From Clostridia bacterium (GTDB taxonomy: Bacteria > Bacillota > Clostridia > TANB77 > CAG-465): a stretch of 64,000 nucleotides of DNA. The first letter of the stretch is position 1, and every line of letters starts with the position of its first letter. The translations under genes were made by a program, and so were the position numbers. Shown here in pieces: positions 58,963-63,889 of the stretch. The stretch is taken from positions 4,615 to 68,614 of the forward strand of contig JAQUWH010000005.1 in NCBI GenBank assembly GCA_028692955.1. Direction: 5' to 3'. A model generated the notes under the pieces. It did no database searches, was not told the DNA's origin, and saw nothing but the letters and a program-made list of their open reading frames with translations.

Positions 58963-59391
58963 TTATTTTTTATATTCTGCCACCATAATGGTAGTAAAAC
59001 CTGATTTTTCTTCTACACTTGTTACATATAAAGTGGATTCGTTAATATTACTGATTAACTTTTCTTTTGCTTCCGGTGTTGTGTAATCTAAATTTTTATA
59101 TCTAAACAACACGATAGTGTCATTCATATAACGATTTAATGCATTAACAATTTCTATTCCAGTTTTAACATTTCCACTAAAGGTGTACCCCTCTTTTGTA
59201 CTAGTTCCTTCTTTATAGGTATCAAACTCATCAAAGCGGTTTTGAATGGATACATCCGTTTCATATACTTGAGAATAGATTCTTTGCATTTGTCCTACAG
59301 AAAACAGGACTCCGCTTGTCACTATAATCGTAATTAGTACACCAACAGCAATCGTTATTGCCTTATTTGATGCATCATCCAAAACACTCAC
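58963..59391 (-). CDS. Pilin-like N-terminus protein, ~140 aa
   Basis: (MSVL)DDASNKAITIAVGVLITIIVTSGVLF. The likely true start is TTG 59382, 7-8 nt after AGGAGG, giving MDDASNKA-ITIAVG. Confidence 0.6.
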   Translation of the reverse strand: MSVLDDASNKAITIAVGVLITIIVTSGVLFSVGQMQRIYSQVYETDVSIQNRFDEFDTYKEGTSTKEGYTFSGNVKTGIEIVNALNRYMNDTIVLFRYKNLDYTTPEAKEKLISNINESTLYVTSVEEKSGFTTIMVAEYKK

Positions 59392-60196: not shown

Positions 60197-60673
60197 TTAT
60201 ATTTTATAAACAATTTCAACTAATAAAACATCTTCATTATTGACTGACTTTGTCATAGTAAATTTTTGTGTTGGAACAATGAATTGTAAGGCTTGATTAT
60301 ATGACTTTTCATCTAAATTTGTCCTAGAACTTTTGACCACCACATTTTTATTAGTGGCATCTACATTGGTATAGCTTTCAAATGAGTGATCTTGGCGAAT
60401 ATAAGTCACATTAATTTGTGCTTTTTCATCTCTATAGAAGTAATTTAAAAGATTGATAACATCTGTACCTTTTATTTCAACAGTATTATCTGTTTTTAGT
60501 AATATATTTTCAATATAATTAGCATATTCCTGTCCAATATCAGTACCCGTTCCAATTGCATTAACTAAATCTTTTGAGGTACTATAATATGCTAGAACTC
60601 CGGTAATTGTTGCAATCGTTACAAATACGCTTGCTCCTATCATAATTGCCCTCATTGGTGCACTTTCATCCAC
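60197..60673 (-). CDS. Pilin-like N-terminus protein, 158 aa
   Basis: GTG start 8 nt after AAGGGGG. The N-terminus is MDESAPMRAIMIGASVFVTIATITGVLAYY. Confidence 0.6.
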   Translation of the reverse strand: MDESAPMRAIMIGASVFVTIATITGVLAYYSTSKDLVNAIGTGTDIGQEYANYIENILLKTDNTVEIKGTDVINLLNYFYRDEKAQINVTYIRQDHSFESYTNVDATNKNVVVKSSRTNLDEKSYNQALQFIVPTQKFTMTKSVNNEDVLLVEIVYKI

Positions 60674-60701
60674 TAAAATCGCCCCCTTACCTATGTGCTT
60701 T

Positions 60702-60790
60702 AAAAATCACTCCGATAACAAGTGATTTTTAAAACATATATATATATATGTTTTAAAAGGTATATAACTATAGTATAATTATATACCTTT
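60702..60790 (-). promoter_or_regulatory. Three consecutive stem-loops between the tandem small pilin-like genes and the downstream subunit genes (candidate partial terminator or processing region)
   Basis: AAAAATCACT/AGTGATTTTT (60702-60730). A perfect 32-nt AT palindrome TTTTAAAACATATATATATATATGTTTTAAAA (60727-60758). AAAGGTATATA/TATATACCTTT (60756-60790). Confidence 0.45.
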
Positions 60791-60803
60791 TACTTATTGT
60801 TTT

Positions 60804-61280
60804 CTATTTTTCAAAGTATAATCCAACTACGTTATCAGAACCAGCTATTTTAATAACATGTGATTTGTATTTTGCTGTTGATGGAGCATAAGTCCCAGCC
60901 GCACTACTATCACTTAAAGCACCAATCCCAGATGGAGTATATCTCTCAGAAGTGATACTTGTTGTTGTATAATCACCTGCCACTGTTGCTGTTACTTTTC
61001 CATAATTTGTAGTAGTTGTTCCATTTTTTACAATGAGAACCATGCTTTCATCTTTGTAATATCTTTTGATAGCAGTTACTACTTGAGCTCCTGTTATTGT
61101 TGAATCATCAAAATCTGCTGTTAGTTGTGCTTGCAAACTCTTTGATATGTTAGATACTTGCTCTTGCCCACCCTGTAACATTTCTTGACCCATACCTGTA
61201 ATTAACATAACTGCTGCTATGATAATGATGGTAATAAATAATCCAACACCAATCATAATTGCCTTTTGTGCGTTATCCAT
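60804..61280 (-). CDS. Small pilin-like protein, copy 2 (candidate major subunit)
   Basis: 158 aa. MDNAQKAIMIGVGLFITIIIIAAVMLITGMG followed by a Ser/Thr/Gly-rich globular part. It is the tandem paralog of the next gene. Confidence 0.7.
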   Translation of the reverse strand: MDNAQKAIMIGVGLFITIIIIAAVMLITGMGQEMLQGGQEQVSNISKSLQAQLTADFDDSTITGAQVVTAIKRYYKDESMVLIVKNGTTTTNYGKVTATVAGDYTTTSITSERYTPSGIGALSDSSAAGTYAPSTAKYKSHVIKIAGSDNVVGLYFEK

Positions 61281-61291
61281 ATCTTTTCCTC

Positions 61292-61786
61292 CTATTTCTT
61301 TTTAAAATATATCCCAATAACATTATCAGAATTATTTATCTTAATTAAATGTGCTTCAAATTGTGCAGTAGTTGGTACATATGTTTTAGCATTACTAGCA
61401 TCTGACAATTTTCCTACCCCTTCAGGAGTATTAGCAGTAGTTGATTGCACGGCACCATAGCCTGTAAAATCGTTTCCACTTGTATAGTTATTTGGATTAA
61501 TTTTTCCATAACTAGATACACCTTTGCCATTATTAACAATTAAAGCCATTGTTTCATCCTTGTAATATCTTTTGATAGCAGTAATGACTTGTGCACCAGT
61601 TACAGTTGCTTCATCAAAGTCTGCAGTAAGTTGTGCTTGCAAGCTACTTGATATGTTAGATACTTGATTTTGACCTTGTGTTAACATATCCTGTCCCATT
61701 CCCGTAATCAGCATAACTGCTGCTATGATGATGATAGTAATAAACAACCCAACACCAATCATAATCGCCTTTTGCGCATTATCCAT
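61292..61786 (-). CDS. Small pilin-like protein, copy 1 (candidate major subunit)
   Basis: 164 aa. The first 31 residues are identical to copy 2. SD is AAAGGGGGGAA. It lies directly downstream of the platform gene. Confidence 0.7.
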   Translation of the reverse strand: MDNAQKAIMIGVGLFITIIIIAAVMLITGMGQDMLTQGQNQVSNISSSLQAQLTADFDEATVTGAQVITAIKRYYKDETMALIVNNGKGVSSYGKINPNNYTSGNDFTGYGAVQSTTANTPEGVGKLSDASNAKTYVPTTAQFEAHLIKINNSDNVIGIYFKKK

Positions 61787-61831: not shown

Positions 61832-63889
61832 TTAGAAAGACATATTATTAAAGTAGCTCATCATTTGCATAATACTTACCACCATCAGTGGTGCTACTAA
61901 ATAACCGCCTATTAAGAGTACCATTGGTGTAAAGCCTAATGCTTTTCCCATTGTTACTTTCTTTTGGATTAATCTTTGATTTCCTTCTTTTCTTCTTTCA
62001 TAGAAGAAAGATCTTTCTGTTTCCAGTTCATCAAAGGCAGCTCTAACTGGTATTCTTTCAACAGCAGATTCTAATTGTTCTACTATTCTTTGGAAATCTT
62101 TATATGGGACGGCTTCTTTTAACTCTTCTAAGGCTCTTTCAGCACCAGATTCATAGTTATTTAAGCAGGTATCAATCGGTTCTTTAAAAGCATAGGAGAA
62201 TCTTGAAAGCCATTCAAGTATCGTTTGTACGTCAATTCTATCAATATACATTAGCATCAAGATAATAGATTGGAACTGCATAATTTCATTTTCTTTTTCC
62301 ATCTCTCTTATTTTGTTCTTAACATACAAGATAAACGATGGCATCATGTATGCTATTAATGCAATCAGCAATGCTGTAAATACTTGCCAAAACTTAAGGT
62401 AAGATTGTTTGACTGCTTCAATTTTAGAATAGATTCTATCTACTGAAGTATTATCTACTTCACCAGTAATTGGATCTATCATCTGTGCAGCAAGTTCTTC
62501 TTTTGTTACCTTTTTATTCTTGTATTTATCAATATATGTTTTATCTGTTTTATTAATGGATTCTGCAGCAGCTTGTTGCTCTGCACTAAGTTTACCAAAT
62601 GATAAGAACTCTTCACTTATTTTATTATAGATAGAAGATACGTCAATACGTTGCATATTTAGTAATAGTATTAACGAAGCAACGAATGTAATAACTGCTG
62701 CGGTTAATTTATTAACATATAACCATTCAATAGTTAAATAAGCATTGGTATTTTTAATCAATGCAGTTTCTTTTCTATATTTTTTAGTATTTTCTCTAGT
62801 TTTAAAAGCATCTACTATCAATTTAAAAAGACGAATGTTATATAACTTCTCTTGCCATTTAATATTTGATACTCTGTCAAATTTTATTTCTTCTACGTCT
62901 TCTTTTATAATTCTTAACATCAAATACGATATAAATATCGAAACGATAATTAAGGATTGAACAAAGAATCCGATACTACTATCATAAAAGTTCATTAAAG
63001 CTGGGAAATTAGATTCCGCCCATGCCTGTAATGGTTTAATCGCTACCAATGGTACAACAGCAATAATGGTTAAACTTCTAAACATATAGTTAATTTTATC
63101 TCTTTTTAATATTTCTAGATAAATATCGCTTAATATATTATTTAAGTTCTTTAAATAGACAGAAGTCCCGTCTACTTTTCTGTCACCTAGATCAAGTGTC
63201 AAGTATGATACACCAGCAAATAATTTTAAGAACCTATTTGGTGCTGTATCATAATATCTTTCAAGTTCTATTTCCGGATTTTCAGAAATCATTGCCTCTT
63301 TAATTCTTCTAAGTTGAGGAACAATTTCTTTATCTCCCAAGTCATCTATTGCGGAATTAAAAGCTTCTTCAACCATTCCATGCTCATGAAATGCATGTCT
63401 AATACTAGTAAATGCTTCCGGCATTTGTTTTAACATTTTTTCTGATACAGATGTAATACCTATATCAATTATTTTTTCAGTTACAATTAAAACACCAATG
63501 ATGACAATTAAAGACATATATAAATCATCAACTAAATTAAGGAATACAAATAATGATACAAATAGGAACAAAATAGCTCTTATTACAGTTCTACCAGCTC
63601 TTCTTCTTAATTCATATTCAGTATAATCATTTGTCATTTCAAGTTTTAGTCTTGTTTTTTTCGTGTAATATTTAAGGACAGGCATTTTAGTAAAAGTTAA
63701 ATAGATAATTTGATAAAATTTATCAAATAAATCTTTGTAGTTTGTTTTTTCTTTTACAACAAGCTTATCCTTGCTATATAACACAGAATTTTTGGTATAC
63801 TTACGACGTATTATTTTGTAATAAAATAGTAAACCAAGTATTCCTATTACTGCAACTGCGATAAGGATAATTGCTATATTTGTAATCAT
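61832..63889 (-). CDS. Polytopic membrane protein with two T2SS-F (GspF/TadB-TadC/ArlJ)-like repeats: candidate fused type IV filament platform
   Basis: 685 aa. Each half has TM helices, a ~110-aa helical cytoplasmic block, then TM helices. The C-terminal block ...YKDFQRIVEQLESAVERIPVRAAFDELETERSFFYERRKEGNQRLIQKKVTMGKALGFTPMVLLIGGYLVAP resembles the TadC/GspF repeat consensus as I remember it. Confidence 0.55.
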   Translation of the reverse strand: MITNIAIILIAVAVIGILGLLFYYKIIRRKYTKNSVLYSKDKLVVKEKTNYKDLFDKFYQIIYLTFTKMPVLKYYTKKTRLKLEMTNDYTEYELRRRAGRTVIRAILFLFVSLFVFLNLVDDLYMSLIVIIGVLIVTEKIIDIGITSVSEKMLKQMPEAFTSIRHAFHEHGMVEEAFNSAIDDLGDKEIVPQLRRIKEAMISENPEIELERYYDTAPNRFLKLFAGVSYLTLDLGDRKVDGTSVYLKNLNNILSDIYLEILKRDKINYMFRSLTIIAVVPLVAIKPLQAWAESNFPALMNFYDSSIGFFVQSLIIVSIFISYLMLRIIKEDVEEIKFDRVSNIKWQEKLYNIRLFKLIVDAFKTRENTKKYRKETALIKNTNAYLTIEWLYVNKLTAAVITFVASLILLLNMQRIDVSSIYNKISEEFLSFGKLSAEQQAAAESINKTDKTYIDKYKNKKVTKEELAAQMIDPITGEVDNTSVDRIYSKIEAVKQSYLKFWQVFTALLIALIAYMMPSFILYVKNKIREMEKENEIMQFQSIILMLMYIDRIDVQTILEWLSRFSYAFKEPIDTCLNNYESGAERALEELKEAVPYKDFQRIVEQLESAVERIPVRAAFDELETERSFFYERRKEGNQRLIQKKVTMGKALGFTPMVLLIGGYLVAPLMVVSIMQMMSYFNNMSF

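Follow-up and report, generated by a model that had tools for sequence, protein, structure and literature searches.

The closest described system is a pilus gene cluster of the order TANB77, reported by Kim et al. (Nat Commun 2024; PMC11680825). This cluster comprises 10–14 genes, is conserved in 122 of 129 TANB77 species, and is almost absent elsewhere. The reference cluster encodes proteins 927–938 of HRGM_Genome_2725 (PMC11680825). Protein 927 is CpaB-like, 928 and 929 are TadZ/CpaE-like, 930 is TadA-like (640 aa), and 931 is a TadC+TadB fusion of 693 aa, whose halves are reported to be structurally homologous to TadC and TadB. Proteins 932–938 are pilin-like and have lengths of 165, 170, 143, 146, 237, 178, and 621 aa; the N-terminus of 938 resembles TadE/PilV (PMC11680825). 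The authors could not infer functions for 932–937, and only 938 was tested (PMC11680825). The abundance of TANB77 and its pilin genes was linked to the response to checkpoint immunotherapy (PMC11680825). The terms "major pilin", "peptidase", and "duplicat*" are all absent from the text of PMC11680825.

Tad/Flp systems (type IVc), known from Aggregatibacter and Caulobacter with TadE/TadF, contain a CpaB/RcpC-like SAF protein, a TadZ/CpaE-like ParA protein, a TadA/CpaF-like ATPase, and a TadB/TadC-like platform. Their Flp pilin is about 50–80 aa long, has almost no head, and carries the motif G/XXXXEY. Archaeal type IV pilins and archaellins have a short polar leader that ends in K-A or R-A and is followed by a hydrophobic helix; they have no Glu at +5 and bear a sizeable head. 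Archaeal class III signal peptides are cut after [KR]-[GA] by PibD/FlaK/EppA. In other type IV pilus systems, tandem pilin paralogues combine a constant N-terminal module with variable heads.

Here, we analyzed two tandem pilin-like genes, A and B, in a stretch of 64,000 nucleotides (the window) from an uncultured member of TANB77. The pilus cluster to which they belong is the known system published in 2024, and the present work adds detail to it. We assign a probability of roughly 0.65 to the reading that A and B are tandem paralogues of the first ("protein 932") subunit of the TANB77 Tad-like pilus cluster and probably its major subunit.

Organization of the locus

Gene A (61292..61786, 164 aa) and gene B (60804..61280, 158 aa) lie head to tail, both on the minus strand, as seen from the open reading frames and the sequence. 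The two open reading frames thus have the positions and lengths given in the initial annotation. A is the first subunit gene 3′ of the platform gene, and B is its tandem paralogue. A has an unambiguous ATG start with a G-rich Shine-Dalgarno sequence 5′ of it. B starts 11 nt past the stop codon of A, and this 11-nt spacer contains a GGAGG Shine-Dalgarno sequence of its own.

The two proteins are 68% identical as a whole. Their N-termini, which read MDNAQKAIMIGVGLF, are identical over 32 residues (MDNAQKAIMIGVGLFITIIIIAAVMLITGMGQ), one residue above the 31 reported initially. These residues are encoded at 61691..61786 in A and at 61185..61280 in B, both on the minus strand, and consist of the invariant leader MDNAQKA and a hydrophobic helix, with the hydrophobic stretch at residues 8–28. 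The conserved middle and C-terminal blocks described earlier were also found in both proteins. At least three further assemblies, all independent (L048, L049, and L050), contain the same A and B tandem, so the pair is not an assembly artefact.

As the window ends within the operon, the upstream part was taken from the same contig (L005). The operon starts with a 346-aa SAF-domain protein (TIGR03177, E 2.7e-6; SAF, E 2.2e-7) with weak matches to CpaB and FlgA. It is followed by two small proteins of 235 and 245 aa, which match no family and occupy the positions of the published ParA/TadZ-like 928 and 929, and by a 631-aa P-loop ATPase with weak matches to TadA and T2SSE. Directly 5′ of A lies a gene for a 685-aa polytopic membrane protein (61832..63889, minus strand), which corresponds to the published 931 by position and length. 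This protein had no Pfam match, T2SSF included; its orthologue in L048 is also 685 aa long.

On the 3′ side of A and B, the operon encodes six proteins of 158, 260, 142, 166, 581, and 400 aa, each opening with a short polar stretch followed by a single hydrophobic helix. The third pilin-like gene (60197..60673, minus strand; 158 aa, starting with MDESAPMRAIMIGAS) is distantly paralogous to A and B; its homology to A is weak (E 0.007), it matches the family profile with an E-value of 6.5e-10, and it is kept at the same position in relatives. The fifth pilin-like gene (58963..59391, minus strand; 142 aa, starting with MSVLDDASNKAITIAVG) is another distant paralogue; its E-value to A is 0.011, and its class in relatives matches the profile down to 1e-17. 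No Pfam or NCBIfam model matched A, B, or the other small proteins of the cluster above chance-level scores.

The order and sizes of the genes match Table 1 of the published work (PMC11680825) and the sister locus L048: a CpaB-like protein, two ParA-like proteins, an ATPase of about 631–640 aa, a platform of about 685–693 aa, a first pilin-like protein of about 165 aa, and then further proteins with a single transmembrane helix, ending in one of about 580–620 aa. A and B correspond to 932 by position and size, and like 932, which lies directly 3′ of the platform, they are about 165 aa long with a short N-terminus, predicted to be cytoplasmic, and a predicted transmembrane helix and folded outside domain. 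The locus differs from the published cluster in that the 932-type gene is present twice. The SAF protein and the ATPase, by their weak profile matches, and the ParA-like proteins and platform, by analogy with the published cluster, resemble those of Tad/Flp systems; unlike Flp, A and B have about 160 aa, a predicted globular head, and no G/XXXXEY motif.

Sequence divergence between A and B

We aligned A and B codon by codon and calculated dN/dS along the gene by the Nei-Gojobori method. Codons 1–32 contain 13 synonymous and no non-synonymous differences (pS 0.62, dS 1.31, dN 0), so that 13 of about 21 synonymous sites differ within 32 identical codons. The synonymous sites of the common N-terminus are near saturation. 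For the whole gene, dS was 0.96 and dN was 0.255, giving an omega of 0.27. Omega was 0.20 in the conserved middle (codons 33–87), 0.72 in the variable segment (codons 88–140), and 0.27 in the C-terminus (codons 141–164).

The third-position distance between A and B over codons 1–87 was 0.40, and that to the orthologues of the sister species was 0.39–0.46. The 5′ ends of the two genes are therefore not near-identical in DNA, given the 13 synonymous differences in 32 codons. The earlier proposal that the common N-terminus reflects purifying selection on the helix rather than recent gene conversion holds for this genome, with a dS of 1.31, a dN of 0, and a distance of 0.40.

Conservation in the protein family

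A search of a large protein database with A gave 816 homologues at E ≤ 1e-3, all of them unnamed or hypothetical. We aligned 58 homologues that were 47–87% identical to A overall. Residues 1–32 are about 95% invariant in this alignment and residues 8–28 are 97% invariant. The leader MDNAQKA (residues 1–7) is the same in all 58 sequences, while its codons vary synonymously. The mean majority fraction of residues 88–140 is 0.38, and this segment contains 38 of the 43 insertion columns. Most of the divergence thus falls in one part of the head that is rich in loops and indels.

Over the first 27 codons, the mean pS was 0.66 vs a mean pN of 0.066 among 624 between-genome gene pairs, indicating that the constraint acts on the protein and not on the DNA. 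The N-terminal identity of A and B is an instance of purifying selection across the whole family. MDNAQKA (61766-61786 in A and 61260-61280 in B) is more conserved than the helix itself, unlike the leaders of the third and fifth subunits, which vary in length and sequence. Such constraint is unusual for a leader that is simply cut off.

Within the same family, 76 of 77 genomes had a profile match; elsewhere in the order the matches were weak and N-terminal. All 73 named loci fetched with the family-derived patterns MDNAQKAI and TI[IL][IV]IAAVM were in metagenome-assembled genomes (MAGs) of uncultured gut Clostridia, including CAG:921, CAG:465, and CAG:1219. The Tad-like pilus cluster is a conserved feature of the uncultured gut Clostridia order TANB77 and hardly occurs beyond it.

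Predicted structure and leader signal

The structure of the protein was modeled with AF2 on the 58-sequence alignment (pLDDT 73). The model contains one helix of 55 residues (residues 3–57) and a small alpha/beta head, in which a second helix accompanies about six strands, the final two of them made up by the conserved C-terminal block. In overall shape the model resembles a type IV pilin, with low confidence for residues 31–57 (pLDDT about 55). The initial annotation had described a conserved core and a diverged surface. This description fits the model, in which the conserved blocks correspond to the long helix and the last two strands; the loops and almost every indel fall in the variable segment. 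Comparison of the model with the PDB by Foldseek gave no structural relative and no pilin (best E 2.1), and a profile search of the PDB sequences gave one chance transmembrane match only.

The bacterial prepilin signature (G at −1 and E at +5) is absent from A and B, with no G-[FM]-x-x-x-E and no Pfam or NCBIfam N_methyl match at E ≤ 1. A strict regular expression for canonical T4P and Flp leaders, applied to the open reading frames of the genome, gave chance matches only. A boundary of the form [KR]-A-[ILVM] is common to three paralogue classes of the cluster, reading QKA-IMIGVG in A and B, xRA-IMIG in the third gene, and NKA-ITIAVG in the fifth gene. In A and B the boundary is at K6-A7. QKA[IV] was found in 86 of 88 strong homologues, and a boundary of the [KR]A[ILVM] type in 102 of 129 weaker paralogues, whose leaders mostly have 8–9 residues.

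By analogy, this boundary resembles that of archaeal class III signal peptides, i.e., a signal that does not look bacterial. The short polar leader ending in K-A, the following hydrophobic helix, the lack of Glu at +5, and the sizeable predicted head are all shared with archaeal type IV pilins and archaellins. A and B differ from these in that they match neither Pfam Pilin_N nor an archaeal pilin model at E ≤ 1 and have no structural match, and in that the sole A24 peptidase of the bacterial host is PilD-like and unlinked.

The genome (1.25 Mb, 30% G+C, 97.7% complete) also has a type IVa pilus cluster and Tad genes, both of the conventional kind. A canonical Flp pilin of 70 aa with a G/SAVAE site is encoded beside a TadC-like gene (C3:146889-147101). 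The single A24 prepilin peptidase is a PilD-like protein of 251 aa (C3:118842-119597; L006 1264-2019), and its gene adjoins no pilus cluster. A TadV-like peptidase gene was not found among the open reading frames of the cluster. Three different pilus systems would thus have to share the single A24 peptidase. Beside the PilB/PilT/PilC genes, the region C17:57282-57977 encodes small proteins with leaders such as MNKKG/ISLMSMVIY, which have Gly at −1 and no Glu at +5; thus, this genome's type IVa pilins likewise depart from the typical form.

Age and recurrence of the duplication

In a maximum-likelihood tree, A grouped with P0002 and P0003 (support 100/99) and B grouped with P0004 and P0006 (94/81), and the A and B clades were sisters (94/93). 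The presence of separate orthologue clades indicates that A and B had already separated when this species and two sister species diverged. The duplication is confined to this small species group. Between A and its orthologues, dN/dS was 0.083/1.19 for the whole gene, with a ratio of 0.18 in the variable segment; between B and its orthologues, these values were 0.091/0.96 and 0.21. The overall omega between orthologues was 0.07–0.09 for both copies. A and B are both maintained under purifying selection, each with its own head.

We surveyed the copy number in related genomes. Among the 75 species genomes of the order with a strong match, 57 had one copy, 14 had two, and four had three, i.e., about one-quarter carry two or three copies, and multiple A/B-type copies were nearly always in tandem. 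The 70 named MAG loci gave 55, 12, and three, respectively. Five further within-lineage pairs clustered together in the tree (L046, L047, P0013/P0032, P0023/P0027, and P0052/P0053), suggesting that duplication, or whole-gene conversion, recurs.

The two sister species gave third-position distances between their A and B copies of only 0.20 and 0.10 over the 5′ 87 codons, and one of these pairs was protein-identical through residue 40. Furthermore, in five of seven tandem pairs the 5′ end had a lower pS than the 3′ end. The homogenized 5′ halves of the sister species indicate that gene conversion of the helix-coding half acts in the family, and it has left no trace in this genome. A and B resemble the tandem pilin paralogues of other systems in their constant assembly helix and variable head, and in the 5′ conversion seen in relatives. 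They differ in being complete, probably co-transcribed genes, each with its own start and ribosome-binding site, rather than silent cassettes, and in showing no sign of recent exchange in this genome. What is new here is modest and consists of a candidate major subunit, an old duplication with both copies under selection, recurrent tandem duplication, 5′ conversion in relatives, and the leader signal of non-bacterial appearance.

Several related loci had other arrangements. Three, perhaps four, A/B-type genes form one tandem array at G097:C4:6298-8485 and at G178:C10:28112-29461. Matches to the A/B profile with one or two in-frame stops were found at G157:C4:34036-34446, G193:C36:8932-9393, and G030:C2:5935-6342; these could be decayed extra copies or matches spanning two genes. 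At G084:C21:29075-29371, an A/B-type N-terminal module (profile positions 1–97) heads a 488-aa open frame located on a different contig from the main cluster, which may be a fusion or a long pilin variant.

The intergenic region downstream of B

The sole long spacer of the operon is the 130-nt region 3′ of B (60674..60803, minus strand), which contains two long hairpins flanked by A-tracts and U-tracts. The minimum free energy of the minus-strand RNA from 60674 to 60810 was −37.2 kcal/mol vs −16.3 ± 2.9 for shuffled sequences (z −7.3), and the stems have about 18 and 17 pairs and are A+T-rich. A consensus terminator scan found none in this region; its rule requires G+C-rich stems, which this 30% G+C genome does not use. 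A consensus promoter scan carried little information, with 17 promoter-like sites vs 12 ± 3.5 expected, and gave no sign of a separate promoter for A or B. Judging from the sequence, the hairpins are likely a leaky terminator or a stabilizer that sets A and B apart from the downstream genes.

Discussion

The assignment of A and B as probable major subunits draws on their place as the first of the subunit genes, the most conserved N-terminus, their own Shine-Dalgarno sequences, and the hairpins after B. Both proteins would insert in the membrane via the N-terminal helix, and the sole A24 prepilin peptidase of the genome, which is encoded elsewhere, may cut off the short leader at K6-A7/I8. The ATPase and platform would then extract the subunits and stack them through the common helix. 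The resulting filament would combine one assembly interface with two different surfaces, which could be mixed or used as alternatives, and the hairpins after B may give a higher transcript dose of A and B than of the downstream minor subunits. The initial annotation had taken the pattern as the one expected of two antigenically or functionally distinct major subunits; A and B would then be major subunits that may differ antigenically.

The origin of the common N-terminus and the role of the two copies could be explained differently. A recent duplication, recent 5′ gene conversion, or an assembly artefact would make the two N-termini alike without selection; the homogenized 5′ halves of the sister species (distances of 0.20 and 0.10) and the lower 5′ pS in five of seven tandem pairs speak for this reading. 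In this genome, however, 13 of about 21 synonymous sites differ, the 5′ distance of 0.40 equals that to the orthologues of other species, and the tandem pair occurs in four independent assemblies. This candidate is refuted for this genome by the 5′ divergence and the independent assemblies, and we regard it as highly improbable. That one of the two genes is a redundant, neutral duplicate heading for loss, with no distinct role, would agree with the single copy in about three-quarters of the species and with the in-frame stops in copies of some relatives (G157, G193, and G030). But A and B are both intact, each has its own Shine-Dalgarno sequence, and separate orthologue clades are kept in at least three species-level lineages with omega values of 0.07–0.09, about 0.2 in the variable segment, so that neutral redundancy is improbable.

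A more serious alternative, although still unlikely, is that A and B are extracellular proteins anchored in the membrane by a single pass (N-in) and not filament subunits, for example alignment or pseudopilus-base components or anchored ligand-binding proteins, and that the major subunit is another gene of the cluster. A and B have neither sequence nor fold similarity to any pilin and no canonical prepilin cleavage motif, the low confidence of residues 31–57 in the model would permit an anchor, a flexible stalk, and a head, and the published work inferred no function for 932–937 (PMC11680825). On the other hand, as in pilin sets, the genes for a Tad-type ATPase and platform are followed by several whose products start with a related N-terminal helix, and the helix of A and B is the most conserved among them, as in major pilins. 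The hypervariable head and recurrent duplication suit an exposed, abundant surface structure, and the N-terminus of the published 938 resembles TadE/PilV. We thus prefer the reading in which A and B are pilus subunits.

More speculatively, the TANB77 pilus might represent a separate branch of type IV filaments. The major subunit of such a branch would be a 160-aa protein whose [KR]-A signal is archaeal in style and whose head matches no known fold, and its "constant helix, variable head" cassette would be duplicated (1–3 copies) and 5′-homogenized in some lineages, while the head diversifies. We consider this proposal possible but doubtful. If it is true, these gut commensals could vary an abundant surface antigen under host antibody or phage pressure, which would bear on the reported link of TANB77 pilin genes to the response to checkpoint therapy.

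The 932-type gene is the likely major subunit of a pilus for which the published work (PMC11680825) left open which protein builds the filament. Few sequences of the cluster are as constrained as the helix of A and B, and the exposed head varies by substitution, indels, and repeated tandem duplication. For pilus biology, an archaeal-looking signal in a bacterium without a linked peptidase raises the question of how these subunits mature. Should the filament exist, the most abundant antigens of the pilus would be A and B, and biomarkers based on the mapping of reads to pilin sequences would be sensitive to variation in the head.
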